DNA of 64,000 bases from Bilabrum cf. latius (GCA_965178125.1 OZ237746.1:682001-746000); one strand, 5' to 3'. Shown: positions 1 to 64,000, counted from the stretch's first letter. Notes: generated from the sequence alone by a model not told the origin. Numbers and translations: made by a program.

Positions 1-2
1 AT

Positions 3-3000
3 CCGCAGTACGGTCAGACCGCCACCAGCGAGATCTTTGGGGCCGCGTTCGTGCTCGCACTCCCTGCCGTGTCACGTTGGCCGGATGGACTGTACAACGC
101 GTCCGACGGACTGTACAGTTCGGCAATTTCCAATCAGGTCGGGCTGACCCTGCCAGCAGGGAGGCAGGCTGTGGATCGGCTGCAATCGCTGTCGGGAACA
201 TCTGGGATCGTAAGGGACCCTGCAGTCATGCAGCCACTTGCCCTGCTTCAGTCGAATCACCGTGCGGATCTGACTAGCATGGTCACTGCCTCGTAGTCAC
301 CCGGGTCGTCACACCCACAGTATTCTCTCAGGACTGCCAGGTCGGTGTTTGCTCGACCGCGCAGCAGCGGTGTTGCAGATCCGGTGGCACAGCGCTTAGC
401 ATCTAGCAGCGAGTGCGACGGGGGCTCGTGGCAGACCTTGGCAGAACGCGACCCTACTGGCTACAACTTCTACACTGGCCTGGCCTCCGCAACCGCTCTG
501 GCCAATGGAACTGTACTGCTGACAGGGGGTGACAAGCGTCTGGGTGGAACCAGTTATTATGGCAACCTACTTCGGAGTGACGACTACGGTAGCTCTTTCT
601 ATGTGATGGGCGTCAACAACATTGGCGTAGATGCTGTTGACACCCACAGAAGCATCATTGCAGTGCCAGCGGAAAAAACCGAGCGCCATAATAGCTAGAA
701 TGTAACTATGCGCAACCGTGACACAATGGCCTCGGATCAGACCGTCTTGATCCTTGGGGAGGGTACAATCCAGTCGATTGCTAAGTTCTATTCCTACATG
801 GGGGGATTACAAGGACAATTCACGCAGACGGCAATGAATAACGTATACAAGCTTAATCATTTTGCGGTTGCCACGACGTGGCACGGTCCGGCGACGGCAC
901 CGTCGTTATATATGATGGGTGGATAGCAGCAAGGCGCGCCTGGCGACAGAGTGTACAAGAGTACGAACGGGGGTTTCTCCTGGAGCTAGCAGCAGGCTCG
1001 GCTACCCGGCAGGTGCAGGAAGAACGGAGGAGTAGGCACCTACGGGGGGATCCCAGTAGTGACGGGGTGCCTCAACGAGTTTTCCAGCGAATACGGCGAC
1101 TCTGACTCCTCCGCCACTGCTGCCTCCTTTGATAACGGCGTGTCGTGGACGGTCACCAGCCGGACGGTACACGCGCACACGAGGAGCTACTGGCCTCCGA
1201 GGAGGGTGACACGTTTAGTGGCGTTGCCAGACGACAGCATACTCCTGTGCGGAGGGAAAGACGAAGATTCAGGAAACAGTATCGGCGGTGGCAATGGAAT
1301 CTCTGGAGAGGATCTATTCGGCGACTGCTGGCGCTCTTGGGACCACGGCTTGCACTGGGAGAGGCAGCTGGCTCCCAACGGTGGATTCGACGTGTTTCCC
1401 GGCGGCAAGCCGCTGGCTGAGCACTCCATGGTCCATTTAGGGGGCGGAAGGGTGATTGCCATCGGCGGACGCACGTCATTCACGTCCAGTATCTACATTG
1501 GCGTGATCGGCGCGACGTTCTGCCTTCAGAGGCCGGCTCAGTCGCACGCTCTTCCTGAAGGCAAACACGGACCCTCATCAGATTTCGATCCCTGGCCCAT
1601 GCTGTGCCCCAGGGGCGCCAAGCGAGGCACCGCGGGATGCATGCTGCCCCTGCGAGTATCTAGTCAAAGCTAGGACGATCCTGTGAAGCTGCTCATTGAG
1701 TATTCCTCCTCACAGGCCTCTTTGCTGTCACACTGGGCCATCAACGAGGGCGGCTATGTGAGAGCACTCGTCACGCATCCGGACTCGATGTCCAATGACA
1801 CTGTCGTGCAGGTATCCGTTGAGCCTGCGGATCCGCATGATGGAGGCTTCACCAGCATGAGGAATCTGCACGGGGGCCACCCCTTGCACTTGTTCAAGGA
1901 TGTGCCCGAGACGCCGTCTGTCGATGCCCTGAATGCTGGCATGCAGGTGGACGGTCTTCCGGCTGCCAGCGGCAACGTGTACGGCCCCTCGATTGCGCAG
2001 CCCATGCGGCTAGTGCTTAATGTACCGCCGCGACTGGCTGGCCTGGATGTGCCCTTCCACAGCATCGGCAGCCCGCCGGCGTCCATCTAGCTGCAGAGGA
2101 AATGGACGACATGGACGACTATCGCGCGATGCACTGCTTGCCTAGGCCGCGGGGAGCTCTTGTTACCTCGTGCTGCCTTCCTGTCCGGGCCCAATGGGGC
2201 TGCTCTGCCCAGCGGTGCTACAACTGACTCGCTTGATGTGCAACAGGCAAGTACAGCCGGTTTTGAGGTGGTCATCAGGGGGGAGATGCCATTGGCTTCT
2301 ATGCGCAGGGGGGGCGCGCTTGCTTTCATTCAGGTGGGGAACAACTCGGATTGGAGGTCATGGGGTAAGCTGACCAGCCTAGATGGCAACACCCTGAGCC
2401 CAGCTGCCTACACCAAGGCAAGGACAGCGATCCTCTCGGCAGAAGCCAGTGATGTTGGCATGCCAGTGCCCCCGCGATCCTAGCTGGATTCCCTGAATCA
2501 GACCAATGGCATCCCAGACGCGCTCGGGTACCAGCTCGTGGCACAGTTCCCGCCAGTGCAGACGCAAGAGGTCACTGAGCTTCATGCAGCGGTGTGCGTC
2601 TTCTGGCCCGGCCTTCACCCCATCCCCAGCGGGCTGGCGGCCGCCCTGCCCAGCGACCCCTGGGGACCCATGGACACCCGATTCTTCTCGATTTACCCTA
2701 GTGACTCGCTGCTGGGCAGACGGGCCGCCTCTTTGATTGAACTGGAACGATGGGCCAGCGGGAGAGAGGACATGGCCTGCTCTATGGTCAGGGACTTTTA
2801 CGGGACTGGGCGGCCTGTAGTTCTGGCGACTACGAGCAATGCTACCATACCCTCGGTATTCTACGCACCTGTTGCGGTTCGAGCCGATTTCAATCGGAAT
2901 GGATTCAAGGTATTCGTTGCCGTGCCGAGAGAAACTATGACACGGATAGGATGGGTGGACGCAAATGGCGATATCACCGCATCATTTGAGCAAGGCATGC

Positions 3001-6000
3001 AGGTGGAGCTCGAGTACACGAATGGGGACGCAACGTTTTAGCACACCGTTGCCTCACTCATCACTGCGTGGGTGCAGCCGAGCGAAGCACTATCCTCTTT
3101 GCAGGCACAGGGAACTCTGCCCCGGATTGTACAGGCACTGGAACGGCGGGTGGGTTCCTCGCCCATATCGTACCAGGCAGGCACTCGTGCACCAGACCAG
3201 TTCCTGCTAGGTGTGCCGGTGCCTGGTGCCTGGAGCTCGATCGGCATCCATTCATTCGTAGTAAAGAGCGTGCAGTAGCAGTCGTCGGGATCTGCAGTAC
3301 CCCAGTTCGATGTGAGCTCTGCTTCCGGGTCAAGTGTGAGGGTGTTTCGCTTCGCACCATACGTGGAGCAAGCCGGTCTCCTCTCGCAAGGCACTATTCT
3401 TGGATGCGCTGCGGTGAATGATTCCGGATCAGCGTGTCCGGTGCACGTTCCAGACACCATTGGGGGCATCGTGACGGATGGAAACGAACCTGTAGGACCT
3501 GTGTAGCTCAGGCTGGCGTTGCGGTTGCACCAGCACGCTGCCGTTGGGTTTGATGGGGAGGATGTGTACCAGTAGCATGGCTCCATCTTCGGAGTCCCAT
3601 CCGTCGTCATACCACAGCGGCGCAGGCCAGACATACCGAGGGACTACATCATCGCTCCAGTAGACATTGTGGTGCCTTTGGCTGACATGCACGAACGGAT
3701 GAGTCAATACGATAGGGTCGAGCTGCACGCAGCAAGGTAGGCTCCCAATGAAACGATGCCGCCGCCGGGGAGCGGAAACTTTTGCTTCGGAAACCACACC
3801 ACCGCCCCCATGCAGCTCAGTACAGTGTATCCCAACCACACCATGGACATCCAGCTGCCTTACGTGGTGCCAGCAGTGCTCACGGGTAGGAGTGTGGAAG
3901 CGATTCAGCTGGCTCGCCATGGAACTTCGATCACAAGTGAGACGCCTCTGAGGGTAAGCAACTGGACGGGGCAGCCCTTGGCTGTGCGAGCTATCGGTAC
4001 GTCTATCTCGGGGCACTCTCGATCGAGCGACGTTCGGATGCTGGTAGGTGACTAGGTGTTCTCTCCCATCGCTCAGGGTGATGTTCTCGGTGGTGCAACC
4101 ATCGCAAATGTGTTATTTCTCCCGCGTGCGTATGAGCTTATTTCGGCAGCGGCGAGGAAAGCGGATTTCGCTGCAAGGGCGCACACGGCGCGCACTCAAG
4201 GGGAGCTGTACGGGTGGGATGGTGAGCAAGGTGAACTGGACGTGCGCCTGCCCATCCGGCTAGAGGCCGCCCCGTGCCTGGCTCCGTTTGGATCAGGGGC
4301 GCGAGAGGAGCAGATCGCCAGGCTTCCCATGCCCGCCGTCGGTGCACAATTGCGGCTCCGAGTGAATGTGACGGACAGCAGCTTTGTGCCGTAGTTCATG
4401 GAGAGACGTGTCCGTGCGGTGGAATTGCAGTCGAGTGTGCGGCATGTGATGAGTGCTTCGAGTGCTGCATCGGCCCGGCCGGAGCTTCGTGCAGCGATCG
4501 AATTCGCCTTCTAGCAATCGACGGGGCAAGAGGGTGAGCCTCGGCCTAGCACTTTCAACGGTTCGCCATACTTGCCGTACAACTCTACGGTGACGCGCAA
4601 GCATGCTACGCTGTAGATAGCTGGGCAGGGGCTTTCGCACTGGCCCGATGGTCGCGATCTGCTAGTCTCGGTCCAGGGTATGCCGTGCGAGATAGTCTTC
4701 GCCGGGCACGATATGGTCATTGCTTCGTTCCCTGCACAGACGCTCAGGAATATGGCGATATTGCACCTGGCACAGTAGGATTTAGGTGGTACACCATTCG
4801 GGTCCACCGTCTCGGTGGAAATGCCTGTGTCCTTATTCAGCATGTCCTCCTCCAATCCGAAGAGGTGGGACTGGGACCACAATCCTGAGCACAGCGGCTA
4901 CACACCACTGCCGATGGATTCCACGGCCAGACTTAGGCTTGACGTCCCAGTGCAGCTCATCCACCAGGTGATTCAGTTCAGGGAGCTGGCTCAGGTGAGC
5001 ATGTATCCATCGCTTTAGGGCTCACCTGGTGATAGCGTGGCTTTCAAGCCAGATGGATCAACGGTGCTTGAGACCCTGGCGCGGCAAGGCGAGACAGACA
5101 TCGCCGACGACTCCAGCCTGGGCGGGGTGTTTGCGGACTGGGGTGCAATCGCGACGAGTGTGAACAACGCCAATGGAAGTGGCATTGATCTACAGCGTGT
5201 GCAGGTGCAGGTGGAAATCCCTCAGGCGGTTAACAGCACGCAGCTGGCGGCAACCACCGCAGGACTGATTAAGCTAAGGTTGGATGGGACTGGCATGACT
5301 GCGAAAGCAGGTCGCGATGTGCTCGTCACACTCGGTGAAAGCTGCCCTGTAGTTCCGGTCTGGGACGAGACGGCACTGGATGCGTTCGTGGGCGTGGTAA
5401 CGAAGGACTGTTTGCGTGGAGCTCTTGAGGAACAAGGCGGGCTGACCCAGGCGACTGCTGAAGTGAGCATGTGGCATCTGGACGATGTGGACGCAACTGC
5501 TGAGGAGCTGGACGAAGGTCTGCAAGAGCACACGTACGTAAAAGTGCCGACTGCAACTAGCGCGAATATATCGGCTCTGGTGGTCGCAACCCCAACCGTG
5601 CAAGGCACTGTCCTGCAGTCGAGTGTGCGGTCAATCGTGGTCCACGCCTCAGTCGGCCGCGGCAGCACCCCGCATGAATTGAGGCCACCTGCTCCTGCTG
5701 ACTGGTTCCGCAAGGACAGGGGCATGGCGCCGCGCGATGAGGCCGAGGTCAGGATTGACCTCCAGCTGCCTGCACCGGACCAGTCCTCCCTAGCTGGGCA
5801 GGCGGATCCAGCCCAGGACGGCCTGGTAGAAGCTGCCAATATCCGGGCTGCGGCCAGCCTCGGGTACGAGGGGCCCCGCGATGCAAATATCTTCGCAAAT
5901 AGCACGAACATGTGGCTGCATGTGCGCGTGCCGGTGGTGGCTCTTCAGGTGCAAGCACTCTAGAGCGCTGTAGATCAGGCGACCAGGCTGTGGATTACAC

Positions 6001-9000
6001 CGCTCGAGGCGGGTGCAGGAGATGCAGTGCACTTTTGGGCGAATGGCGCAACCGAGCTGCCAGCAGCGTACAACGCAAGCAGCCTATGGTTACGAGGCGC
6101 CGTGCAAGTATCCGTTGAGCTTACCATTGGTGCTAAGTCGCTGCGAGCTTCCGACCGAGGCACAAGTCTCGGTTTTGGATCCCCCGTCACCTTGGGCGAG
6201 CTGGAGTCGTCCACCCGCGGGATGATCTGGGCATGGGTGCCTCCTCCATTGGCTGGACTCAGCCAGTCGGCACTGGAGACAATACTAAAAAGCGGCACTC
6301 CGACAGCCCCAGTGCAGATGCAGCCGCCCTTGCAAGCACTACAGGAGCTGTGGCCCCTACGAACCGACCTCCAGCTGGACAGCGCCCTGCAGATGATGCA
6401 GCTGGACGGCCCCACGGAGGCACAGGCAGACGGGGCTGCAGACCTGCCGGTGCATGTGACGAGTGGGTTTGAGCTACCGCCCGGCACGCACCAGGATATT
6501 CGAAGCACCGCGTTGGCTGTCGTGCAGACAAGCTATCAAGTCGATGAGGCCACAGGTGCCGTCACGCTGGTGCTGGATGGCGGGCCCGGCCTGTCGCCCG
6601 CTGCCGCGCTGCTGAGCCACGGGCAGGTGCTGCTCGGAGCAGGGGCACCGCATGCACTCGTCACATGGTCTGGCAGGTCGTTGTCCCTTCGCGACAGCCC
6701 CCTGCTGTCCCTCGGGCTGTACACGCTGCAAGGCAGAATAGCGCAGCTGAACGACTCCTCCACCGCACCGGACATAGTGCACAGCGGTAGGAGCAGCGAG
6801 GCGGTGTCAGTGGCCGTGATGCAGCGGCCGTTGGACGCATGCAGGTGGCCCAGTGGGGCCGCTCCCGCTGTGACGAGTGCATGGAGCTTGCCTTCGGGCG
6901 AGGACGCAGGGGACGTGCTGTCGGCTGGCTCGTCCTTCCAGTGTCCCGCTGTCAGGCCTCTGCCACCTGACTCTGGCAGCATTCGCGCATGCGGGCCCAG
7001 GGTACTAATCCGGACCACCGTGTGCGCGGGTGCGTGGCTCTCCGGAAACATGCACGACCAACAGGGGGTGCAGCCCACTGCGGTCCTCGGGGAGGTGCCG
7101 GGTGCGTCGGCTCACGCGCTGGGACGAGTGGCTCTCGGCTGGCTCCCTGACTAGGTCAATGTATCCGTTCAGTTTGTGGAAGCCATCGACCAAGCAGGGT
7201 CTGTATTGCATGATAATGTGTCGATTCGGGTGACTGGTCCATTGGCAGGGAGCGGGGCGGAGTGGACGGCTGGCTCTGTGGCGGCTGGACTGCAGGCCGG
7301 CATCGAACTGGGGGCAGAGGCAGAGGCCAGCACTGGTGGGATCCTTAGGGGGGCGGTTGCGTCTGCGACGGTGAAGCGGGTGGCAGCGGTCGGGGTGGCG
7401 GCCAGGTCGGCCGGAGCTGTTTCCGGTTTGGAGGTCGCGGGCTTCGTGCGCTCTGCCGTGCCGGATGGCTGGACCGCTGTCGATGACGCGAGCGTGCTGG
7501 TTGGGCTGCTTCCCACCAGCGCCAGGCCACCCGCAGGTGCTGACGCACTCGTTGGAATGGATTCCGGGGCTGCAGGTTGCAAGGGGGCAGTGTGCATTGA
7601 ACTGCAGCTCGGTGCCTCTGTGGTGGCCCCGCCTGGATAGATCGTGGGGGGCGGAGGCATGCGATTCGCGAGGGCAACCGCTTTGGCCACCTCATCAAAT
7701 GGCCCGAGCGTGGGAACATCTGCATCGTCGCAGCTGGGATCTCCTGCTGATTTATCACTTGCTCAATGTGATGCGGGGGCAGCTGCCGGGCCCGGCGCCG
7801 GGTCTGATAGCGGTGGATCGGTTAGCATCTTTGTAGACGACGAGGACGTGGCCGCTGCTGCTGCTGCCTCCAACCAGCACCCGTCCTCGGTGCGCGCCGC
7901 TCAGCTCCTGAACGCCCCTCCTCAGGTATCCGTTGAGTCTCCCTTCCCTGACGACGAGAGTGCTCTGGCCCTGCTCTCTGTCGAGGACCCCACCCTGGCC
8001 GTGGGGGTGCCAGTGCAGCCAGCGGAGGGCGAGGCACTGGTGGTGGCATGTCTGCCGCACTCGCTGAGGACCGGTCCCATGGGCGTGGGCGTAGGCGAGA
8101 GTAGAGGTGATGGTGATGGTGATGGTGATGCAGGTGCAGGTGCGGGTGCAGCGGACGGTGGTGCAGGTACACCGCCTGACGCATTCTCGGTCTGGCCCCC
8201 GGTGCAGGTGCTGGATGGCTCTGTGGACGAAGGGTGGGAGGCAGGAGGCGCGGCGAGGGCGGGCTTCGATATCGGGCTGGAGCTGCAGGACAGGCTGGAC
8301 CAAGCTCCTGCGGGCATGGGCCGCATGCGGGCATGGGTCGTGTGCGTGATCGTCAGCACGGAGCCTGGCGCCGCGCAATCCCTTGCGGAACTGACCCAGG
8401 GCCGCCTTCTGCCCAAGGTGCTCCCAGATGACCTGGCCCAGCTGCCCGGGCCTGTGCCACAGGGCAAGTACCAGATGCCGTTTGCAGTGGCCATGCCGGT
8501 GCGGGCCCAGCCGGTCCGCTGGCCAGCTGCAGCAGACGTGCTGATTCGCCTACCTGACGCTGTCTGGGGAACAGCGGAGGCCGGGGCGACTGACCTTGTG
8601 CCTGCTCCCGGATCCGCAGCGGATCTGCTGGGCAGAAGCAGCCGATACGTGTCTGCGTGGGGGTCGCAGGGCAATGCGGTGCAGACAGAGGTTGGAGATG
8701 ATGGTTCGGTTGAGAACAGGCGATTGGGATCCATTAGAACATCAAGCAGCTTGCCGCCCGTGGCCTCTGGCAAGACACAAAGGCGCGTTTTGGCATTCAA
8801 TGCCACTGATCCGGACCTTGCGCTGGCATTGGGCTCGGCTGGGTCATCGCCGAGCGCCGGCTCCACTCCCTGGGTGGGTCCCTCCATCGTGGTGAGCGGG
8901 TCTTCGGATGTGACGATTGCGTGCCCCGAGGCGCAGGGGCTGGCACTGGGCTAGGGAACAAGCAGAGTGCCCTGCCTGACCCCGGGCTCCCTCGTGTTCG

Positions 9001-12000
9001 TGGGTGGAGCCCAGGCCGATGTGCTTGCGGTGAGTGCAGGCATGGAGGCTGCCAGGGTGCGGGTGCCGCCTGCAAGGGAGGCGTGCAGGGGGACCCAGGG
9101 AACAAATGAAGGCGCGACGAGCTGTCCACCGCTTGCGGTGTTGATTGCCACTGCTCCCGCCAGGGGAGCAGACGGGCAGGCAGACCCGGGCGTGGTGTGG
9201 CCCCCGGACGTGACCAGCATTCTGGCCGGCATCACGGTGGATGTAGGGGGTGGTGGTGGCAGGAGGGTGCAGGGCACTGCGACGCAAGGCCCATCCCCGC
9301 AGGTTGCGGTAGACCTGAGGACGAGCACCCTGATGCGGTACATTTGCTCCTCCTCCTCTCGCTCGTCACAGTGGCTGCGGCTCGCGCGATCCGCAGTGGC
9401 CACCACCGGTGATTTGGGCGGGTGCGTGCTCCTGGGGCCTAGTCCTGCCCTTGAGGAGGTCGACGACCAGGACGGGGCTGCGAACGAGGCAGAGACAGGA
9501 GCCCAGCCCCCCAGCGGAACCGACCTGCTCCTGAATGTGCACGTGTCCGGAGCCGATATTGCGGACTCGGAATCCGGTATTGCCGCTCTCGTGCTGCGGG
9601 GAGGCATCGAGTACGTGTAGCAATGCGTTGGATTCCCGCCCCCCGGATCCTTGTGCGCGGACAAAGACGCGGTAGAGGCGGGGCTGGTGTGCGCCTTTGG
9701 TGCCGGGGAGGAATGCAAGTCGTGTCCTGCTGGAGCCGTGTGTCCCGGCGGGTTCAAGGCATAGCCTTTACCCGGCTACTGGGCCGAGTCGGAGGCCACA
9801 GGGGTGGTCCTGCGGTGCGAGCCCCCTGCGGAGGAGAGGTGCCTGGGCTGGGACGGGGGTCAGGCGCTGACCGTGTGCGGGGAGGGATACAGGCAGGGGG
9901 TCACTGGGTGCTCCAGGTGCGAGGACGGGAGGTATCCTGAAGCAGACGGCAGCTGCCAGAAATGCCCCGACTCGCCCTCTGCGTGGCTGCTGCTTCAGCC
10001 CATCCTCGTGTACGGGGGCGGAGTGGCGGGGGCGTGCCTGCTGCTCATGGTCGCGGTTGGGATCGTGGCTCACATGAGAGAAATCCCGCTGGGACTGGCT
10101 GCCAAACGGACGGCGCAGTTCACGCTGTATGCAGGCGCGTTGCTGCAGACTGTAGCGCAGGCTGGCAGGGCGGTGCAGCCGGGCTTGCCCCAGTGGTACT
10201 ACACGGTGGTGCGGATGCTGGACGTGTTCCGGTTTGAGAGCTCCGCGCTGGTGCACCCCGACTGCATCGGGGCGGTGAAATTGGCCCAAGAGATGCTGGT
10301 GCTGGGGATAGCCGTTGGGCTGGCTGGGCTGGCTTACGTGTGCTTCTGGGCTTCTGGGCTTCCCAACGGATCAGCAGCGGAGGACAGTGCCGGCGGGGAG
10401 CTGGGTCCTGCCAGGAGGAGGGTAGAATCGAGGCAGCGGGCACTTCACAAGATGATGGCGGGGCAGTCCCTGCATGGGGGCAAGCCTGTGGGTGTGGCTG
10501 CGGGCTTGTAGCCTGGCAGCGCATCTGTGATGACTATCGCCAACCCCATGTAGTAGCACAGTGTGTAGCCGACGGTGAATGCGAAGCCAACAATGCGGAC
10601 CCGCGGAGACGGCGTGTCGAGCTGTGGTGTGGCCTCGCGCGGATTCATGACGGCGCTGTCACTTGTGTATGCGATCGTGTGCACCACCGTGGTGCAGGTG
10701 CTGGATTGCCGGGCACCAGAGACGCTGGCTAGAGCCGCAGTGGACAGCGGGGTGGACGCAGTGGTCTTGCCCGAATCAGCGCTGGTGTCTGTGGCTGACC
10801 TCATCAATGGGACGATGAACGGCACCTCGGATTCAACGAGGAATGGGACCATGCCGGGCCCGGGGCTCTCGGGTGATCTAGATTCGCTGGACGACTCGCT
10901 CATTGCAAGGCAGGTGCTGGCCAGCTTCGGCCACAGCACGGATGACCTCGATGTTACCCTTCTGCTGGGAGACCCGACCGTGGTGTGCTTCCGAGATCCT
11001 GCCCATCGATCGGCGGTGGCTATTGCCGTGCTGGCCATCCTCGTCGTCCTTGTGGGATACCCTCTTGTGCTCCTCTACTGGGTCCTACCTGAGATCGACC
11101 GCACCGTCCGCAGCTCGCCCTCGGCCAAACAGCTCGACGCGGCCCAGCTGCAGCTGAGACAGGCAGAAGCAAACGAGAGGAGGCAGCAAGCGGCAGGCGC
11201 AGGAAGCTGGCTGCATGCCATCACGTGTGGCCTGCTATCGCCCAGCCAGGCCCAGCCATCCAAGCCTGATGAGTCCCTGACCTCTGGCCCCTTCTCACAC
11301 GTGGGTGCCCGAGGTACCATTCGCAGCCTGAGGCGAGCCTATGCTATGGACCAGCAGCTGGTGCAGGTGCGGGCCAAGCCGTCAAGCGGTCCCTCTTTGG
11401 ACACTTCGCCGCTGCAGTCGCCCGGCGTGACCTCTGGTGTGAGAATTAGCCCAACCATCGCTCAGAGCTTTGGATCCAGGGGTACGCCAGGGAACAAGGG
11501 TGGCCAATCACCGGCTCGCTCCCGCGCACGTAGCTTCACCTTCGATGAAGAAGACGTCAAGGCAGCAGAAGGCAGTGGTGGACAGAGTGCAGCCATCGCC
11601 GCCTCCCCTGCCAAGGGAGCTGCATCCCCAGCACGCAAGGCTGCTGCCAAATCCCCTCTGCCGCTGCTGCTGCAAAGTCCCAGCAGCGGTCCGTCGGTGA
11701 TTGCTGCGGACGAGGACGAGCGGGCGCTCGTGCAGGGGAAGTCCACAGGTGGATCGGGCAAAGGTGCCATGGTCGGCGTCACTGTGTCCGCCGGTTTGGC
11801 CAGGCACATCGTCGAGACCGTGCGGGACCGGTCGCTGATCCTGCGTCAGACGCACCGACTGGCGTATTTCGCGGACGGGGACTATCGCGCTTCCAGGGCC
11901 TGGGTGCGTGTGGTGGACTGGATGGTGCTGCTGTGCCTGGCCGGGCTGGAGAGACTGTGGGTGCCGAGCGACCCTGGGCGTGCAATGGCCGCTGGACTGA

Positions 12001-12722: not shown

Positions 12723-12907
12723 GTACGGACACTGAACGACTGCTACATATAAGAAGTACTTATAAATTAAAATCTCGCAAGGGTCAACCAGCAATCGAAC
12801 CGGACGCGTGATGAAGCCAAGCGCCGGCCAATAGGCAGTCTGTATTTCTTTATAACGTGCTGCACCAAATTGAAATTGTGTTGTAGGCAACCTTAACCCG
12901 GGAGGCA

Positions 12908-43930: not shown

Positions 43931-44047
43931 TAAATTGCGCACCACAAAATCTGAATTAATCATTACTCCCAGAAAAAATATTCTTGTATTTTGGTCCCCT
44001 GTAGTACTTGAGAAGTATAATTACAACAAAAAGTCAACGTGCACCAT

Positions 44048-52000: not shown

Positions 52001-52095
52001 CTTCCTCTGGAGGTGCTTCGTCTGCGGCTGGTGCTGGAACCACGTCTGGTCGTGGGGCTGGAGATTCAGACGTAGGGGGGGAGAGCAAGGAATGA
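49023..52095 (+). CDS. Conserved-looking uncharacterised membrane protein (N-terminal winged-helix-like segment, helical/coiled region, two TM helices); spliced, true start not located
   Basis: Exons ~49023-49091, 49228-49733 and 49839-52095 (TGA). Splicing gives EEVSYVSSA|YIPACLR in frame. TM segments VVQYLLLILACFAFL and MVWFLITAVVAACAVVGIYYL. No internal TAG in the GC-rich exons. Confidence 0.75.
49092..49227 (+). other. Spliceosomal intron (phase 0, putative)
   Basis: GTGAGA donor at 49092 and cccccgcAG acceptor immediately before ATG 49228; frame is preserved. Confidence 0.55.
49734..49838 (+). other. Spliceosomal GT-AG intron, 105 bp
   Basis: GTGAGC donor, pyrimidine tract cctttttcttgttc, ccccgcAG acceptor. 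Removal eliminates the in-frame TGA and joins ORFs 49228 and 49819. Confidence 0.85.
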
Positions 52096-52717
52096 TTGAA
52101 GAGCGCGTCGCTCTGGTGATCGGATCCAGGATCAGTGGATTGCAATGGCCCAACAATCATCTCTTCCTCCACCCGCTTGGTGAACCACCCCCTCCCTGCT
52201 CCGCCCTCAACCCCCCCCCCTTTCCCCCCTTGCCCACCCCTAGCCGCCGTTCCTGCTCGTACCTCACTGACCTGGCCTCATAACCGCGCTCCCTCCTCCG
52301 TATCCGGACTTCTTCCCCGGCATCTAATCCTGCACCTCGAGGGGGTTCTGCGCCCAACCCGCTACCTCAATCTCAGAGACCTTGCTAGCCTCACCAACTA
52401 GCGTCCGAGTCATTCATTTAAGTGCTGAATTTATTAACAAACGACTATGGTAGTAGAGCGTGTATACCCGCTCGGCATCCGCCTAACATAGGACTCGTGC
52501 GAGTTGCGATCTGCCCCACTGGCACTGGCAGACGAGTGTGGTTTTCATCTTCTTCAAAAAAGTATGTGGTCGCAACCCTAATTTTTTAAAATGCTCACCT
52601 TTGCTCAGAACGCCAGTTCACACCAAGAGTTTCATCGCACGTATCGAGAAAAGGCTTTATCACTAGGGGGTTAACGCAAACGTGTTCCGTCATTACCAGC
52701 AAAAAAGAGAGCCTGAA

Positions 52718-53848
52718 ATGTCTCGTAGCAGGCTCAGCAAATTTGGTTCGATTCGTCATTTGCTGCCTCGCTGCGCGCACTGCGGTCTAGAGCTAGATCC
52801 AAGGGACCCTGAGCGGCCCGCACTATACATCCCAACTTGTCATTGTCGCTTATGCGAAAGCTGTTTCTGCCTTCGGCGAGTGCGCTGCCCGGTCAGGCGT
52901 TGCAACGAACGCGTCCGCGGCGACGACAAGGCAGTGCGCATCGATCTAGGAGTTTCTTCAGAGTACGAAAAGACGCCCCAGGGAAAGATTGTATTGCTAT
53001 CGTACCAGTTCCCTCAGGAGTTCAAAGAGGCGGCGGATTTTTGTCGCAAAACAGAGCAAAAGGCGCGCTCTGTACGAGCAGAGGCAGCCCAGGGGGGCGC
53101 AGAGCAGCCAACCGCGCACACCGCGCCAGAGGACCCATTCACAGCGTCGTGTCGTTTTACTAGTGTTAGCCACGTTGATGCAGTCCTAGGAGTGACTACC
53201 CGCTAGAACAAGCGCCGTTCTGGCCGAGATGCAACGCCCTGGCGATTCCCGCCCCCCCTTGCATCTCTCACGACAGGCGGGGGTGCATGGTAGCGTGTCG
53301 GCTCTAAAAGCAGCCAGGGCACCGCTGCAGATGCTTATGGAACCGGTAGATGGAAAGACACTCGGTCCCTCGGATCCGATTCGAAGGGAGCTGCGATGGC
53401 GGGCGGGCTCCGAAGAGGTGGCGAGGTCAGGGCATCGTCCTAGCCCCGCGTTGGGAAGGCAACACCAGCGGGCCGCTCCATGCCCATGCGGATAGTGGGG
53501 CTCCAGGCAGCGTCGGATCGTGCAGGTGTGACCGACTTGGGTGTGGCTGCGGCGGGCGCTGTGGACAGCTCGAGCAAACAGGTCGCCCTTGCCGATCGAC
53601 AGGAGCATGAGGCGGTTCCAAGGGGGGTTCGCGCGGGTCTGCCACAAGGACGGGTGATCTCAGTGATCAGCGCCGTGCATGGCCAGGAGCAGCCGCCCAG
53701 TGCGACTAGTGCTCGATCAGAGGATAAGGGGGGCTCGCGCATGAAGCGGTCTTCGGGAAGCGCCTTTAGTCCGCGACCCTCTGCGAAGTGTTGGCGCGTA
53801 GAGGACAGCGAGGCAGGCGGGTACTCAGGGCGCCCCCCAAAATCATGA
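52718..53848 (+). CDS. RING-finger protein with disordered C-terminus, 376 aa (TAG=Gln)
   Basis: CAHC-x-CHCRLCESC-x-CPVRRC pattern. ORFs 52682 and 53480 are joined via 3 TAGs and end at TGA 53846-53848. Confidence 0.7.
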
Positions 53849-54552: not shown

Positions 54553-54556
54553 CTAG

Positions 54557-57478
54557 TCATGACACCGTACACGGGCACCCAGACCCGGCGGCAATCACGG
54601 ACGCCTCATCGACAGGCGTATGGCCATCCATTTCAGCAACCGCTCCGCCCTGCAACGAACCTACATCACCCGCCACCGACTGCCTGGCAATCACCTCCTC
54701 CAGCACCTTCACGCACTCTCCATGACCGCCCAAACGAGCCGCCTCCAAGGGACCCACCATCGCCCCACCCTCCATCTCGCCCTTGATCTCCAGCCCACCC
54801 GCCAACCGACCCAGCCTCAGCCGCTTCCCCAGCTCCAACTGCCAACCCTCTCTCGCCGCCCGGAACACCCTGCCTGCGTCTCTCTTGGCATTCACTGCCC
54901 GGCGCCATAGCAGCACATGACTCTGTCGATCTGTCATTTTACCCGCCAGCGTCTCTCCGCACAGACAGGCCAATCCAGGATAGTCTGATTCGATTGCCCA
55001 TCGCTGCATGCTCCTCACGCGATCGAAGCAGCCGCCATCTCGTAACGCGTACCGTAACACAGGCACTACGTCCACCAATGGCACCCCATCCCGGTCCCTC
55101 TCCACCTCATCATACTCGGCCTTACACGCGTCTCCCATGCCCAGCACCAGAGACACCATCGCCATCGTGCCCGGGTCCCTGCCGCCCTCCCCCACGGGCC
55201 TGACCATGGACTCCCGGATGGTGTCCATGCAGCTGGCCACGAATGCAGCCACTTGAGTCAGGTCCACAGCCCCGCCCTCAGCAGCTAGGTGCATGGCGGC
55301 CACGGCGCGGCCAGCGAGCACCCGGGGGCTGGGAGCGGGCGGAGGTACAGATGCGGCAGTGCTTGGCCCACAATCGCTGGAATGTGCAATCTCTGTCTTG
55401 AGCTGTTGGTCCATCCACTTCCTGACGACCATGTGCCGCTGCATGCCAAGCATGTCCTCGGGAGTCTTTGTGCGTCCACCAACTGTCATTTCACTCATCG
55501 ACCCGGACTACATGGCTGCCTGCTGCATGCCCTCCAGGATAGCTTCACTCCAGCTGGACCTGGCGATGTCAACACTGAATACTTTGCATGTTCTGCTCGA
55601 TGCAATCGCAGGCAGTAGAGCCCGCGCGGCAGCTTCCGAGAGTTGTGAATAGGAGTCTAATGTCAGCCGACGCAAGGAAGCAGACTCGGAAAGCAGCCTC
55701 GCGACAAAGGGGGCAGATGCGGCAGACACGAGCTCATCCTTCACTTTCATATATTGCAGCGTGGGATGACGTGCAGCAGCCTCGAATAGCACACGACTTT
55801 CATCATCTAAGCTTTTGGTTGGCTCAGCGCTTATTGCCAACTCGTGCAGAGTTGTGTTCCTAGCGAGGCCGGCAGCCAGTGGCGCAACACACTCAGGCTG
55901 CAGGCCACATGCTAGAATTTCCAATCGGCGAAGAGCAATGCCTGGATTCTCGCCTAGTGCCTTCCCCAATGCAACGGGTGTCTATCCGCCGAGAGCCCAT
56001 TTATTGTGGCTCAGATTCAGATCTTCTAGCGTGCTGTTCGACTGCAGCCCGACCGCGATTGCATGCCCGCCCTCGCTTCCGACTTTTCCCCCGCTGAGGT
56101 TTAGCATGTTGAGAGTGGTGTTGACTGCCAGCGCATTGCCCAGAGCCACAGCGCCATCATCTCTTATTTTGCTGCCCATCAGCCCAAGTTTCTCCAACAC
56201 GCACGAGGGCCGGGACAGCCAGAGTGCAATATATCTGGCCCCATCGGATCCCACGTTGCAGCCTGGCAACAGTAGCTCCCTGAGACCACTGCCAGCGGTA
56301 GAATGTCCCTTCATTATGCTGGCAATCCCAAAACAAGAAATATCACAATGCTACAGCGCGAGCGTCTTGAGCGAGCATCCTCTTGGCGAAGCAAGTGCTT
56401 GCCCGAGCAAGGTCGCAAATTCGTCATTAGAGTCATCCGAGTCATCTGAGTCATCTGAGATATCCGATTTAGGCCAAGGCTCATTAACCAAATCATAAAA
56501 TTCATCCCTGTCGTCCCCGCATGGCTGACGCAATGATTTCTAGTCGAGTTGGCTCGCGCCAATGTACAGACTCTCAAGTCGCAGCGCCCCCGTTGCCGCT
56601 CCTTTCCGAATGCCGCGAGCAAGAGGCACCATATCGGCAATGCTCCCACGGGCCACAACAAGCTACAACTTGCGGAGGGTTGAGTTGGTCGCAAGCGCAT
56701 GCTCCCATGCCTCCATCGCACCATCATCAATCCGAATGGTCGCATACTGGATGCTTAGCTCTTCCAATGCATGATTATGCGGTAACGCTCTAGCTATCCT
56801 TACACTAGTACTCTCATCTGTTCGGTTGCGCAAGCTGAGCACGCGCAATGTCTTGTTAAATTTTAGCCCTGTGCACATCAAATCCGCAGACCTGGAATAG
56901 CGACTAGCAATGCTCAGCTCCGTAAGGCATGTGTTGCATGCGAGAGACTGAATCAAAGAAGTGCTCCTCGTTGCTAACGGTAGCGACCCCGGGACCAGCC
57001 TTGCCTTAAGCAATGAAAAACATCCATCGGCAGCTTCGGGGCCTGTCAGCGGGGTTTCGTACTCTCCATCGAGAGACTGCAAACCTGATCGCTACAGAAT
57101 GGCGGCTGCTAAATTGGACCTAACATATGTTTCGCCTCTGCCGCGGGTTACTAGCCTATCGGAATCGAGCACGAAACGTCGCAAAGGAGCTCTCGTTTTG
57201 GCGAGGCTGGTTGCAAGTACTGAATGACCGCTATCTTGCAGCTCGCATCGTTGAATATAGAATGACTATACAGATTCATTTGTAATAAATGCGTTTCCAA
57301 GACAAGCGTACTGTTGTAGCCCCAAGCTCGATCCTGCAACAGAAAGACGTACGAGACTGCTGGACCGTCCAATTGCTTTCGAGAGCGCATCAAGATCTCC
57401 ATTTAAGGAATTAAAGTTAATGCACAATCGGCGGCACCCGCTGTTTATCTGGTCGAGAATCCATGACAAATTGTCCAT
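54557..57478 (-). CDS. Ribonuclease-inhibitor-type LRR protein, copy A (~973 aa, TAG=Gln), C-terminal CaaX-like CTVS
   Basis: Six minus ORFs share one frame joined by 7 TAGs. LRRs such as ALAVNTTLNMLNLSGGKVGSEGGHAIAVGLQSNSTLEDLNLSHN; TGA 54557. Start assigned by similarity to copy B (MDNLSWILDQIN vs MDYSLLLIDQIN). Confidence 0.85.
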
Positions 57479-57956
57479 TTCGTCTACAATCTGGTTAAAG
57501 TAGTAGATGTGGTCGAGTGATCCGATCCCATTCGTGTCTGCTCCGATCACTCCCAATCTTCACCCATACGCCCCCACCTTAAACCAACTAGGTCTGTGCC
57601 CCCCTCATTCTATTCCCCGAATCAACAAGATTACTTCACCAATCATCTTCTCCGAGGGTCCACTTTTCTTTCACCTGCCTGCCAGTGGTGGAGCATTACA
57701 CCCCCATCCACGGGACGTGGTGTTCCATGATTCATGACCGCCGCAGCGGTGCCGCTCCTGCACATACCTCACTCGGCTGGCGCCATCAACCGCTCACTAC
57801 TACGCTATGCCTCATCTGATCTTATATCCTTCACGGGAACTGCACCCAACGTAGAGCGTCAATCACAGACACCTCATTGCCCTCGCCAGCGGACAGATCC
57901 TGTCCATGGCCCGTCTGGAGCGCTTGTTCATTGGATCCATCGACATTAGTCATGAC

Positions 57957-60900
57957 TCATGATACAGAACATCCGCATCCGCACCCAGGCCCCTATTCTG
58001 CTTCAGAGGTCCTAGTGTCTCGCAATGACACTTCATGCTCGCGTCGCTCTCGCTCCATCTCAGCTGCCCTGGCATATCGCAATGATGCTTCATGCTCGCG
58101 TCGCTGTCGCTCTATCTCAACTGCCCTGGCGTCACGCAATGACGCTTCATGCTCGCGTCGCTGTCGCTCCATCTCAACTGCCCTGGCGTCACGCAATGAC
58201 GCTTCATGCTCGCGTCGCTGTCGCTCCATCTCAGCTGCCCTGGCGTCACGCAATACCGCTGCGTCAAGTGTTGTCTCCGACTGCCTGGCAATCACCTCCT
58301 CCAGCACCTTCACGCACTCTCCATGACCGCCCAAACGAGCCGCCTCCAAGGGACCCACCATCGCCCCACCCTCCACCTCGCCCTTCATCTCCAGCCCACC
58401 CGCCAACCGACCCAGCCTCAGCCGCTTCCCCAGCTCTAACGGCCTGCCTTCACTAGCTGCTCGGAACACCCTGCCGGCGTCCCTCTAGGCCTCCACTGCC
58501 CTGCGCCATCGAAGCACATGCCTCCGTCGATCAGCCTCCTCCAGCGCCAGCGTCTCCCCGCACAAACAGGCCAATCCAGGATAGTCTGCTTTGATTGCCC
58601 ATCGCTGCACGCTCCTCACGCGATCGAAGCAGCCGCCATCTCGCAACGCATACCGCAACACAGGCAGCTCCTCCACCACAGGCACCCCATCCCGGTCCCT
58701 CTCCACCTCATCATACTCGGCCTGACACGCGTCTCCCATGCCCAGCACCAGAGACACCATCGCCATCGTGCCCGGGTCCCTGCCGCCCTCCCCCACGCCC
58801 ACGGGCCTGACCATGGACCCCCGGATGATGTCCATGCAGCTGGCCACGAATGCAGCCACTTGCGTCAGGTCCACGGCCCCGCCCTCAGCGGCTAGGTGCA
58901 TGGCGGCCACGGCACGGCCAGCGAGCACTCGGGGGCTGGGAGCGGGCGGATGTACAGATGCGGCAGTGCTTGGCCCAGGGTCGCTGGAATGTGCAATCTC
59001 TGTCTCCAGCTGTTGGTTCATCCACTTCCTGACGACCATGTGCCGCTGCATGCCAAGCCTGTCCCCGTGATTCTTTGTGCGTCCACCAATTGTCATTTCA
59101 CTCATCGACCCGGACTGCACGGCTGCCTGCTGCATGCCCTCTAGGATAGCTTCACTCCATCTAGGCATGACGACACCAACACTGAATACTTTGCATGTTC
59201 TGCTCGATGCAATTGCAGGCAGTAGAGCCCGCGCGGCAGCTTCCGGGGGTTGTGAATAGGAATCTAATGTCAGCCGACGCAAGGAAGCAGACTCGGAAAG
59301 CAGCCTCGCGACAAAGGGGGCAGACGCGGCGGACACGAGCTCATCCTTCACTTTAATATATTGCAGCGTCGGATGGTGCATGACAGCCTCGAATAGCACA
59401 CAGCCTTCATCATCTAAGCTTTTGGTTGGCTCAATGCTTATTGATAACTCCCGCAGAGTGGTGTTCCCAGCGAGGCCGGCAGCCAAAGGCACGACACCGG
59501 CGGGCTGCAAACTACATGATGCAATATCCAATCGACGAAGAGCAATGCCTGGATTCTCGCCTAGAGCCTTTCCCAATGCAACGGGTGTCTATCCGCCGAG
59601 AGCCCGCCCTGTCCAATTCAGATCCAGATCTTCTAGCGTGCTGTTCGACTGCAGCCCGACTGCGATTGCATGCCCGCCCTCGCTTCCGACTTCCCCCCCG
59701 CTTAGATCTAGCATGTTGAGAGTGTTGTTGACTGCAAGCGCCCTACCCAGAGCCATAGCACCATCATTTCTAATTTTGCTGCCCATCAGCGCAAGTTTCT
59801 CCAACATACAGGAGGGCCGGGACAGCTGAGCTGCGATCTGTATGGCCCCATCCGATCCCACGTTGCAGCCTGGCAAAAGCAGCTCCCTGAGGCCACTGCC
59901 AGCGGTGGGATTGCACTGCAGTAAGCTGTCGATGCCAACACGAGAAAATTCGCAGCCCTCCAGCTGGAGCTTTTTCAGAGAGCAACCTCTTGGCGAAGCA
60001 AGTGCTTGCCCGAGCAAGATCGCAAACCCGTCATTGAAATCATTAGAGTCATCCGAGTCATCAAAGTCATCCGAGTCGTCCGAGTCGGGCCAAGACTCAT
60101 TGACGTAGTCATCCAAGGCCTTCGTTGTTCGTCGATTTGGTGCACTGTACTCGCGTTTGCTCGCGACAATATGCAGGCTCTCAAGTCGCAGCGCCCCCGT
60201 TGCCGCTCCTTCCCGAATACCGCGAGCAAGAGGCACCATGCTAGCAATGCCCCTCTGGACCACGTCCAGCTTCAGCGTGCGGAGGGTCGAGTTGGTCGCA
60301 AGCGCATGCCCCCACGCTTCCATTGAAGCACCATGCATGGTCGCACCCTGGATGTTCAGCTCTTCCAATGCATGGTTATACAATAATGCTCTTGCAACAC
60401 TCGTACTAGTGCTGTAGTTTGTCGAACTACGCAAACTGAGTGCACGAAGCGTCTAGTTCGTGCTCAGGCTCGCGACAAGTTGTTTGGCGGACTCTTTATC
60501 GTGGCTGCCGACGACCAGCTCAGTCAGGGATGTATTCCTTGCTAAGGAGCGAATGAAAGGAGCAGTGCTAGCAGATCGACGCGGGGTACACGGCAAAAGT
60601 TGTGCCTTACGCAAAGACGATGATCCCCCGGCAGCTTTGAGGACCGGGTATATCAGCTAGTCGCTGTACGTTACGTCGACTGTCTGCACACCTGGGCGCT
60701 GCAAGACTGCGATTGATATGATAAACCCTGCCATTTCCATATTCTTGCAGTACTTGAACACGAAACGGCGCAAAGGTGCTTTCGATTTTGCAAGGCTGTC
60801 CGCAAGAAGGGAATGGCCGCTCTCTTGCAGCTCGCATCGTTGAAGGTCGAGAGACGTAATTGACCTGTTTGATACAAATGCGCTACCAAGGCAAGTATAT

Positions 60901-61067
60901 TGTCTCAGCCCCAAGCTTGATCCCGTAACCCTAAGACTGGAGAGACTGCTGGACATTCCAATCGCTTTGGAGAGACTATCAAGATCTCCTGAAAAAGCAT
61001 CAAAGTCAATACGCAAGCACCTACATCCTGTATTTATCTGATCAATTAGCAATAAGGAATAGTCCAT
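57957..61067 (-). CDS. RI-type LRR protein, copy B (~1036 aa, TAG=Gln), coiled-coil repeat and CaaX-like CSVS
   Basis: Minus ORFs with 5' ends at 61067, 60434, 59576 and 58469 share one frame with 5 TAGs. Reading through TAG 57993 gives GPGCGCGCSVS-TGA (57957), homologous to the end of copy A. Confidence 0.85.
58020..58255 (-). repeat. 57-bp coding repeat x4 (LRDARAAEMERQRREHEAS), charged coiled coil
   Basis: Repeat of cgcaatgacgcttcatgctcgcgtcgctgtcgctccatctca; present only in LRR copy B. Confidence 0.9.
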
Positions 61068-61236
61068 TGCGTCTATAATACAGACAGAAAAATGTAGATC
61101 TGTGTGGGTGAAGGCCTACTAGCTCCGGATCCATACTGGATGCAGGGGTGGTAATCGATTTGGCCAATTTGATTGAAATGCTCCAGCACAGTAATGTACA
61201 TACACACAATAGCGCCTGGTTATCCATATTGTCGCA

Positions 61237-64000
61237 TCATGCGAACCCGAGGGCCTCCACCAGCACCTTCACGCACTCATCATGACCGCCCAAACGAGCC
61301 GCCTCCAATGGACCCACCATCGCCCCGCCCTCCATCTCGCCCAGCATCTCCAGCCCACCCGCCAACCGACCCAGCCTCAGCCGCTTCCCCAGCTCCAACG
61401 GCCTGCCGTCCCGAGCCGCCCAGAACACCCTGCCCGCGTCCCTCTTGGCATTCACTGCCCGGCGCCATAGCAGCACCTGACTCTGTCGATCTGTCGTTAT
61501 ACCCGCCAGCGTCCCCCCGCACAGACCGGCCAATTCAGGATAGTCTGCTTTGATTGCCCATCTCTCCACCATCCTCAGACGGTCACAACAGCCGCCATCT
61601 CGCAACGCATACCGTACCATAGGCAGCTCCTCCACCACAGGCACCCCATCCCGGTCCCTCTCCACCTCATCATACTCGGCCTGACACGCGTCTCCCATGC
61701 CCAGCACCAGAGACACCATCGCCATCGTGCCCGGGTCCCTCCCGCCTTCCCCCACGCCCACGGGCCTGACCATGGACCTCCGGATGGTGTCCATGCAGCT
61801 GGCCACGAATGCAGCCACTTGCGTCAGGTCCACGGCCCCGCCCTCAGCTGCTAGGTGCATGGCGGCCACGGCGCGGCCAGCGAGTACTCGGGGCTTGGGA
61901 CTAGTGGTAGGTATAGATGCAGCAGTGCTTGGCCCAGGGTCGCTGGAATGTGCAATCTCTGTCTCCAGCTGTTGGTTCATCCACTTCCTGACGACCTTGT
62001 GCCGCTGCATGCCAAGCATGTCCTCGTGATTCTTTGTGCGTCCACCAACTGTCATTTCACTCATCGACCCGGACTGCATGGCTGCATGCTGCATGCCCTC
62101 TAGGATAGCTTCACTCCAGCTGGACCTGGCGATGTCAACATTGAATACTTTGCATGTTGTGCTCGATGCAATTGCAGGCAGTAGAGCCCGCGCGGCAGCT
62201 TCCGGGAGTTGTGAATAGGAGTCTAATGTCAGCCGACGCAAGGAAGCAGACTCGGCAAGCAGCCTCGCGACAAAAGGGGCAGACGCAGCAGACACGAGCT
62301 CATCCTTCACTTTAATATATTGCAGCGTCGGATGGTGCGTGACAGCCTCGAATAGCACACGACTTTCATCATCTAAGCTTTTGGTTGGCTCAACGCTTAT
62401 TGCCAACTCCCGCAGAGTGGTGTTCCTAGCGAGGCCGGCAGCCAGTGGCGCAACACTTTCAGGCTGCAGACCACATGCTAGAATTTCCAATCGGCGAAGA
62501 GCAATGCCTGGATTCTCGCCTAGTGCCTTCCCCAATGCAACGGGTGTCTATCCGCCGAGAGCCCATTTATTGTGGCTCAGATTCAGATCTTCTAGCGTGC
62601 TGTTCGACTGCAGCCCGACCGCGATTGCATGCCCGCCCTCGCTTCCGACTTTTCCCCCGCTGAGGTTTAGCATGTTGAGAGTGGTGTTGACTGCCAGCGC
62701 ATTGCCCAGAGCCACAGCGCCATCATCTCTTATTTTGCTGCCCATCAGCCCAAGTTTCTCCAACACGCACGAGGGCCGGGACAGCCAGAGTGCAATATAT
62801 CTGGCCCCATCGGATCCCACGTTGCAGCCTGGCAACAGTAGCTCCCTGAGGCCACTGCCAGCGGTGGGATTGCACTGCAGTAAGTTGTCGATGCCAACAC
62901 GAGATATTTCGCAGCGCTCCAGCTGGAGCTTTTTCAGGGAGCATCCTCTTGGCGAAGCAAGCGCTTGCCCGAGCAAGATCGCAAACCCGTCATTAGAGTA
63001 ATCCGAGTCATCTGAGTCGTACCCTCTCGCTACGGTCATATTGGGGTCGTCCGAGTCGGGCATAGGCTCATTAGCCAAATCATAAAATTCATCCCTGTCG
63101 TCCCTGCATGGCTGACGCAATGATTTCTAGTAGGATTGGCTCGCGACAATGTGCAGGCTCTCAAGTCGCAGCGCCCCCGTTGCCGCTCCTTCCCGAATAC
63201 CGCGAGCAAGAGGCACCATGCCAGCAATGCGCCCACGGACCACAACAAGCTACAACTTGCGGAGGGTTGAGTTGGTCGCAAGCGCATGCTCCCATGCCTC
63301 CATCGCATCATCATCAATCCGAATGGTCGCATACTGGATGCTTAGCTCTTCCAACGCATGATTATGCGGTAATGCTTTGGCTATCCTTACACTAGTACTC
63401 GCATCTGTTGGGTTGCGCAAGCTGAGCACTCGCAATGTCTTGTTATATTTTAGCCCTGTGCACATCAAATCCGCAGACCTGGAATACTGACAATCAATGC
63501 TAAGCTCCGTAAGGCATGTGTTGCATGCGAGAGACTGAATCAAATAAATACCCCTCGAAGCTAACGGTAGCAACCCCGGGACTAGCCTTGCCTTAAGCAA
63601 TGAAAAGCATCCATCGGTAGCTTCGGGGCCTGTCTGCGGGGTTTCGTACTCTCCGTCGAAAGACTGCAAACCTGGTCGCTACATAATGGCGGCTGCTAAA
63701 TTGGATCTAACATATGTTTCGCCTCTGCCGCGGGTTACTAGCATATCGGAATCGAGCACGAAACGTCGCAAAGGAGCTCTCGTTTTGGCGAGACTGGTTG
63801 CAAGTACTGAATGACCGCTATCTTGCAGCTCGCATCGTTGAATATAGAATGACTATACAGATTCATTTGTAATAAATGCGTTTCCAAGACAAGCATACTG
63901 TTGTAGCCCCAAGCTCGATCCTGCAACAGAAAGACGTACGAGACTGCTGGACCGTCCAATTGCTTTCGAGAGCGCATCAAGATCTCCATTTAAGGAATTA
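61237..64000 (-). CDS. RI-type LRR protein, copy C (5' end beyond window; TAG=Gln)
   Basis: Minus ORFs with 5' ends at 63669, 63120 and 62535 share one frame with 5 TAGs at positions shared with copy A. Ends EALGFA-TGA at 61237. Confidence 0.85.

Follow-up and report, generated by a model that had tools for sequence, protein, structure and literature searches.

UAG read as a sense codon, probably glutamine, with UAA and UGA as terminators in nuclear DNA of a GC-rich flagellate apparently related to Cafeteria

Is TAG still a stop codon in a 64,000-nucleotide stretch of DNA from Bilabrum cf. latius (GCA_965178125.1, OZ237746.1:682001-746000; the whole stretch is called the window below), or is it translated? 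An original prediction had held that TAG is a sense codon there, with TAA and TGA remaining stops. We delimited 12 frames, g1 to g12, with TAG as sense; the absence of TAA and TGA inside them follows from this definition, and the evidential weight of the frames lies in their length, not in their zero TAA and TGA counts. Under the standard code, the longest stop-to-stop open reading frame (ORF) in the window, which has 61.4% G+C, is 1,383 codons. With TAG as sense the longest ORFs reach 5,198, 4,240 and 3,278 codons, the corresponding frames g3, g1 and g5 having 5,197, 4,239 and 3,277 codons. Reading TAA as sense brings no gain (still 1,383 codons); with TGA as sense the maximum is 1,841 codons. 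Over the 19,805 codons of the 12 frames there are 100 in-frame TAG, about 0.5% of codons and 94 of them downstream of the first ATG, versus no TAA and no TGA. In the two off-frames of the identical DNA we counted 781 TGA, 290 TAG and 125 TAA; at this off-frame stop density, the probability of a frame of 5,197 codons free of TAA and TGA is about 1e-52. No frameshift was found over 9.8-15.6 kb, and the frames terminate in TGA (11) or TAA (one, at 12720-12722) and never in TAG, which the frames treat as sense. The predicted excess of TAG and the ten TAG-bearing genes were confirmed, with the total corrected from 11 genes to 12 frames and the hand count of about 90 in-frame TAG to 100; similarly, the predicted frames of 12.7, 15.6 and 9.7 kb were computed at 12,720, 15,594 and 9,834 nt, and the single TAA end at 12720 and the lack of TAG ends stood, with 11 rather than 10 ends in TGA.

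The TAG-bearing frames are real genes, because Pfam domains flank TAG codons on both sides and because the C-terminal 1,200 residues of g1 (7 TAG) have 999 homologues (E<=0.001) among 1.84 billion representatives; for g1 residues 1-1700 (18 TAG), a word-indexed homology search of shorter proteins gave no match at E<=1e-8. As predicted, the signal peptides starting at 15170 in g3 and at 46576 in g7 connect to Pfam domains solely across TAG codons, and the same is true of the permease start in g6 (ATG 46432-46430) and its domain. TAG codons are also kept among the leucine-rich-repeat (LRR) paralogues g10 to g12, one of them in all three and four in g10 and g12; with g10-g12 pairs and all g4 hits set aside, self-BLAST of the window proteins found no other paralogous segment with TAG.

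The same pattern recurs in an environmental relative, 57-60% identical to the window, which carries TAG codons of its own. The prolyl-4-hydroxylase (P4H)-like protein of g7 has a homologue, 60% identical, on the metagenome contig L001 (8,813 bp, 55.7% G+C); the overlapping contig L002 shares the TAG pattern, and an orthologue of g1 is present on L001/L002. The acyl-CoA oxidase frame of L001 extends over 1,038 codons with TAG as sense and otherwise falls into pieces of at most 226 codons. Its four frames together hold 20 in-frame TAG, 0 TAA and 0 TGA, and terminate in TGA (3) or TAA (1), with no TAG, giving for window and L001 combined (n=16, TAG again being sense by frame definition) 14 TGA, 2 TAA and no TAG. 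The L001 P4H stop, a TAA, lies 5 codons beyond the C-terminal end of the alignment, and the window g7 reaches its TGA after 1 more codon. Together, these frames show that TAG is decoded as sense, that TAA and TGA are not, and that the pattern is common to a clade; the central claim of the original prediction is thus borne out both in the window and in the environmental relative.

Contigs of four public sequencing runs, from four studies, were aligned to 43001-54000, a segment that includes 14 in-frame TAG. No difference was observed at any of the 14, and only 3 differences are listed in the segment, all at 48243-48260 within a repeat. Because the contigs of four studies are identical at these sites, the TAGs are not sequencing errors, and the suspicion of consensus errors, a possible objection to the prediction, was not substantiated. 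Contigs of two runs, X6 and X8, for which RNA is an automatic guess, no run being listed outright as RNA, skip 49734-49838, and those of X8 only also skip about 49091-49227, in each case with GT..AG ends; because of this GT..AG splicing in g8, we take the window to be nuclear eukaryotic DNA. These are the only introns seen within 43001-54000. Contig depth over g8 is about 200 in X6 and 46 in X8, with neighbours at about 6 and 0-3, respectively, which makes g8 much the most deeply covered gene in these two runs. With X6 and X8 taken as RNA, spliceosomal introns are present and g8 is highly expressed; TAG is absent from this gene, the one highly expressed gene of the window. An X6 contig spans 46550-47861 of g7, with its 5 TAG, and shows neither a difference nor a joint. 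X6 contigs keep TAG at 7 sites in all (five in g7, one in g5 and one in g6), and an X8 contig keeps one, unchanged, at 43283-43285 in g5, which hints that UAG survives in mRNA if contigs of such low depth are not DNA.

To place the organism we used g8, for which 436 homologues (E<=1e-5) were found among 8,000 scored candidates. Among the best 120, which were listed, the best named match is Cafeteria roenbergensis (64% identity), and the other named matches are oomycetes, diatoms and Tribonema, none of them above 47%. A quick maximum-likelihood tree of g8 only, built from 22 rows picked from the 120 matches (all five top matches, the named stramenopiles and a few others) and rooted at the midpoint, placed the window and two further sequences as sister to Cafeteria and two sequences, the whole clade having a support of 100 in the Shimodaira-Hasegawa-like approximate likelihood ratio test (SH-aLRT). 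Based on these matches and this single-gene tree, the organism would therefore be a stramenopile near the bicosoecids and not Cafeteria itself, which agrees with the earlier suggestion that the DNA came from a heterotrophic, GC-rich stramenopile. Annotations of Cafeteria use the standard code.

We subsequently went on to the amino acid that TAG encodes. Because conserved columns with TAG are few in the window, comparisons of several kinds were pooled. In the orthologue columns of the window and L001/L002, we kept those TAG columns (n=8) in which 7 or more of the 20 neighbouring positions are identical, and in these the partners of TAG are Gln in four, Glu in two, and Pro and Leu in one each; the 13 columns dropped for poorer context show Q, Q, E, S, S, S, G, G, N, N, H, D and one gap. 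One TAG of the L001 P4H gene stands at a Gln kept by the window and by three distant P4H homologues, and three window TAG columns in the P4H alignment are too variable for a residue call. Opposite TAG in the LRR paralogues g10-g12 are the codons AAG (3), CAG (2), GAG (1), ACG (1) and CCG (1). In the g1 family, codon 3254 faces His and Gln in the closest fragments and Trp in 95 of 144 members of the wider family. Across all comparisons, Gln is the commonest partner, with Glu also occurring.

Truncated database entries point the same way and tell the most of all these comparisons. Among the 150 HMMER matches listed, only 5 end, inside the domain, within two residues of the aligned region. These fragments are close relatives (57-77% identical), and each ends exactly before a Gln of the window; their ends fall at 4 distinct columns, all Gln, with a probability by chance of about 3e-6 given that Gln makes up 4.3% of the query. 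Their contigs measure 1.2-11 kb, which rules out contig ends as the cause of the truncation, and one fragment cluster includes the L001 piece, for which the DNA shows TAG as the stop. Over 22 columns, a crude BLOSUM62 likelihood gave 0.997 for Q and 0.003 for E, and without the fragment ends 0.93 and 0.07. This model disregards that TAG is one base away from each of CAG, GAG and AAG, and for that reason we lowered the weight placed on glutamine from near-certainty to a good probability. By this comparison of residues TAG probably encodes glutamine; glutamate would be the runner-up, at a low probability, and mixed decoding is less probable again. Read as Gln, TAG would provide about 12% of the Gln codons in the window.

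Several observations weigh against this interpretation, either in its choice of glutamine or in its claim of sense decoding. Glu is found opposite g1 TAG 3206 in the pair of closest fragments (77% and 66% identity), although that column is variable in the wider family (E 20, A 17, S 14 and Q 14 of 121), a window P4H TAG faces E in L001, and an L001 acyl-CoA oxidase TAG faces Glu in 4 of 4 PDB oxidases shown (9 hits); the LRR paralogues by themselves score Lys best. The codons opposite TAG in these paralogues are one base away from it, a mutational proximity that inflates Q, K and E alike, and the terminal stop codon is known as DNA for only 1 of the 5 fragments, the L001 piece. The RNA status of X6 and X8 is guessed, and the low-depth contigs over TAG genes could be DNA. 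ARAGORN found no tRNA gene on the window or on L001/L002. Finally, three TAG codons lie 6-11 codons ahead of TGA, in g2, g6 and g11, and with a sample of 12 genes rare termination at TAG is conceivable.

How far do these points favour another explanation? The TAGs might be untranslated, in pseudogenes, as consensus errors, or through removal by editing or splicing. Such a reading, for which speak the bare presence of standard stops and the weakness of RNA support from low-depth contigs, has in our view a negligible chance: no frameshift, TAA or TGA appears over up to 15.6 kb, the contigs of four studies are identical, the RNA-like contigs of X6 and X8 keep their TAGs and have no joints there, and the codons are conserved among paralogues and present in a relative only 57-60% identical. 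Moreover, if the TAGs had arisen by decay, as C-to-T changes of CAG at 100 of 646 sites, then, with 174 CGA and 161 CAA codons, about 32 TGA and 29 TAA (about 61 in total) would be expected as companion nonsense codons, and 0 were observed; because these companions are absent, the TAGs are not products of decay. Alternatively, UAA and UAG could both have been reassigned to glutamine (UAR=Gln, NCBI table 6), with TAA made rare simply by the high G+C content. TAA is indeed the rarest stop triplet off-frame and ends only two genes, yet the CAA:CAG ratio in the window is 161:546 (CAA being 23% of CAR, that is, of CAA plus CAG), with about 29 in-frame TAA expected and 0 observed, and in the less GC-rich L001 it is 39:60, with about 13 expected and again 0 observed. 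TAA as sense extends no long ORF, g1 and the L001 P4H gene end in TAA, and read-through of the TAA at 12720 would lengthen g1 by 342 nt, crossing the first ATG of g2; joint reassignment therefore strikes us as very improbable, and UAA was not found as sense beside UAG. UAA thus still terminates, on direct evidence that is thin (two of the 16 genes end in it, and it is missing from the frames), and UGA still terminates too, ending 14 of the 16 genes, with 0 occurrences in frame versus 781 off-frame.

More weight, albeit still little, falls to explanations that accept TAG as sense. It could stand for glutamate, its meaning in peritrich ciliates, or for some other residue, lysine for instance, an unlikely outcome for which the Glu residues at g1 codon 3206, in the well-conserved P4H column and in the acyl-CoA oxidase column can be cited, along with the slight preference for Lys in the LRR paralogues alone. 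Set against it are the four distinct fragment-end columns, all Gln and none Glu or Lys, the standing of Gln as the commonest partner, the L001 P4H TAG at a Gln kept in 4 homologues, and, for Glu specifically, a likelihood ratio of Q over E of about e^6 over the 22 columns. Exchange between Q and E is among the commonest substitutions, and some E partners are therefore expected even if TAG means Gln. A further reading, for which we see a slimmer chance, makes TAG ambiguous, either as a terminator recognised by context at 3' ends (Condylostoma type) or as a near-cognate mixture of Gln, Glu and Lys decoded without a dedicated suppressor tRNA. The mixture of Q, E and K among the partners and the three TAGs close before TGA would suit it, but none of the 16 gene ends defined by frames in the window and L001 is TAG, and 100 sites, at about 0.5% of codons and in proteins of up to 5,197 residues, would demand efficient decoding. 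In g11, the TAG at 57995-57993 precedes the stop by 11 codons, and downstream of it is a C-terminal Cys-x-x-Ser motif that g10 also has; because this shared motif lies beyond it, that TAG is read through. A code of the Condylostoma or karyorelict type, in which a regular terminator doubles as sense and all three stops are affected, is not what we observe: TGA and TAA never occur in frame and no gene end is TAG.

The explanation we prefer, and hold to be probable, is that the window comes from the nuclear genome of a heterotrophic stramenopile, GC-rich and poor in introns, near the Cafeteria (bicosoecid) lineage, whose cytoplasmic translation takes UAG as sense, likeliest Gln, and keeps UAA and UGA as the sole terminators. 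By analogy with Iotanema and ciliates, UAG would be read by a tRNA-Gln with anticodon CUA, derived from tRNA-Gln(CUG), and eRF1 would no longer recognise UAG efficiently. eRF1 is not among the window genes, and an Rfam scan of the window at the gathering threshold gave no match.

The features of the window are given in Table 1.

Table 1 Frames and individual TAG codons in the window
Feature	Position	Strand	Details
g1, giant membrane protein	3..12722	+	4,239 codons, 29 TAG, stop TAA 12720-12722; 5' end cut by window edge
g1 TAG codon 3206	9618..9620	+	within conserved Cys-rich module
g1 TAG codon 3254	9762..9764	+	region of conserved Cys-Pro-Gly-Gly motif
g2, without Pfam family	12815..14845	+	676 codons, 6 TAG, stop TGA
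g3, secreted/membrane protein	15170..30763	+	5,197 codons, 14 TAG, stop TGA
g4, Armadillo-repeat protein	31263..33788	-	841 codons, 0 TAG, stop TGA; Pfam Arm E=2e-99
g5	34187..44020	-	3,277 codons, 20 TAG, stop TGA; long armadillo arrays
g6, amino-acid transporter (Aa_trans)	44048..46570	-	Pfam PF01490 E=2e-27; ATG 46432-46430; stop TGA
g7, prolyl-4-hydroxylase-like 2OG-Fe(II) oxygenase	46363..47889	+	5 TAG, stop TGA
g8, conserved stramenopile protein	49022..52095	+	GT..AG introns ~49091-49227 and 49734-49838
g9, small Cys-rich ORF	52487..53848	+	4 TAG (3 past first ATG), stop TGA
g10, RNI-like leucine-rich-repeat protein	54557..57559	-	7 TAG; paralogue of g11, g12
g11, LRR paralogue	57957..61268	-	7 TAG
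g12, LRR paralogue	61237..63999	-	5 TAG; 5' end cut by window edge

On the plus strand at the start of the window, g2 begins 92 nt past the end of g1 and has two TAG among its last 10 codons. The first codon of g3, immediately preceded on its 5' side by a TAA, starts the signal peptide; the protein carries an M11/reprolysin-like metallopeptidase motif, EGF-teneurin and ephrin-receptor-like modules and a C-terminal transmembrane segment. All 20 TAG of g5 are in its N-terminal unique part. The C-terminal half of g5, together with g4 (31263-38100 and 41600-42900, minus strand), consists of dozens of near-identical 42-residue armadillo repeats, and g5 also has a tandem array of about 25 copies of a 17-residue unit; these repeat arrays hold no TAG, and several further frames on both strands are open across them. 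In g6, one TAG (46411-46409) follows the start and precedes the first transmembrane segment; a second stands 6 codons ahead of the TGA. The signal peptide of g7 begins at an ATG at 46552 or 46576. The exons of g8 have no TAG; the database assigns this protein the precomputed Pfam families PF27230 and PF27231, neither of which was matched in the Pfam scan of the window proteins, and some sources label its relatives 'WD repeat-containing protein 35'. At the other end of the window, g10-g12 are three tandem RNI-like LRR paralogues, 70-88% identical; g10 and g11 have a Cys-rich tail, ahead of which g11 has an additional repeated Glu/Arg-rich segment, and their Cys-x-x-Ser C-terminus resembles what we take to be a prenylation box.

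In the environmental relative, the acyl-CoA oxidase of L001 (1703-4819, minus strand) has an insertion of about 200 low-complexity residues that separates the N-terminal/middle part from the C-terminal alpha domain, and only residues 118-212 and 417-668 are matched by PDB oxidases. Three TAG fall within this stretch, which could be a genuine insertion or an intron left unspliced.

The 13-mer GGTGTGACGAGTG, encoding Gly-Val-Thr-Ser, occurs eight times within 5.4 kb (44329-49742): six copies are on the coding strand of g6, in low-complexity inserts between transmembrane halves, one is in g7, and one is on the minus strand in the g8 intron 49734-49838. Contigs of several runs jump between its copies through short-sided joints, and it is perhaps a small element, dispersed or inserted, that is tolerated in frame. 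At 47833-48210 there are six tandem copies of a 63-bp unit, the array starting within the last 19 codons of g7, so that the 3' coding end of g7 is copied five further times past its stop; the assemblies of all four runs break here. Two intergenic segments, 48139-48505 and 52176-52542, are covered by contigs about 30-fold more deeply than their flanks in every one of the four runs (in X1, depths of 485 and 443, respectively, versus about 15), and are therefore high-copy genomic repeats; the two showed no mutual similarity, and no Rfam family was found in them at the gathering threshold.

The code itself corresponds to NCBI table 15 (TAG=Gln, with TAA and TGA as stops), under which every long frame in the window opens. 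Table 15 has reportedly been predicted for some phages (PMC9523058), a matter unrelated to the nuclear case. Among eukaryotes, the fornicate Iotanema spirale is described, in passages of Panek et al. 2017 (PMC5304391), as using UAG for Gln, with UAA and UGA as stops and UAA as the primary terminator. As in Iotanema, UAG alone is reassigned here, apparently to Gln, UAA and UGA are kept, and in-frame UAG is found in conserved genes; unlike Iotanema, a member of Metamonada, the organism here is apparently a stramenopile, with TGA ending 11 of 12 genes and a G+C content of 61%. Reassignment of UAG only, to Gln, Leu and others, is recorded for the ciliate Protocruzia tuzeti and several phyllopharyngean ciliates, and UAG=Gln is said there to have arisen independently several times (passages of McGowan et al. 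2024, PMC11687900). The decoupled meanings of UAG and UAA in these ciliates are shared by the window, which, in contrast to ciliates, a group known for code changes, would come from a stramenopile flagellate. UAR=Gln (table 6) is listed in the same source for many ciliates, hexamitin diplomonads, oxymonads, ulvophytes and an aphelid (PMC11687900, in part); as in those codes, a stop has apparently been captured by glutamine, presumably via a mutated tRNA-Gln anticodon, whereas TAA is not sense here. Two non-ciliate eukaryotes with UAG-only reassignment are the rhizarian exLh from Lygus hesperus, with UAG=Leu, and Scotinosphaera, with UAG=Ser (passages of PMC5304391 and PMC11687900). The window resembles both in reassigning UAG only and differs in the residue, Leu being the partner at 1 of 22 columns and Ser solely in poorly aligned columns.

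Our search of open-access full texts, supplements aside, found no nuclear code change in stramenopiles, the matches being mitochondrial or unrelated; in PMC12152300, for example, the mention of 'stramenopiles' that was matched is a reference to a labyrinthulean mitochondrial study. The suggestion in the original prediction that this reassignment was undescribed therefore stands as far as such texts reach. The code variant is a known one, of the table 15 pattern and Iotanema type, and the lineage appears to be new for a nuclear code change, with an origin that we infer, from phylogenetic distance, to be independent of the known cases. We lean, by a modest degree, towards regarding it as the first non-standard nuclear code of a stramenopile, an independent change of UAG to Gln in a clade of widespread, GC-rich Cafeteria-related flagellates with UGA as the main terminator.

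If this is true, and if Cafeteria uses the standard code, the change would be a recent one, with sequenced relatives on both sides of it, and the order in which UAG was lost as a stop, tRNA(CUA) was gained and eRF1 changed would be directly testable. Decoupled reassignments of UAG and UAA are rare, being described for a handful of lineages, mostly ciliates (passages of PMC5304391 and PMC11687900). Every new origin tests the codon capture, ambiguous intermediate and tRNA-loss models, and a GC-rich stramenopile in which TGA is dominant, with a close relative for which genome data exist, contrasts with the mostly AT-rich cases. Gene callers that use the standard code fragment these genes, and the database already has truncated pieces from several sources; annotations and metagenomic protein catalogues will therefore be systematically wrong for this lineage until table 15 is used.

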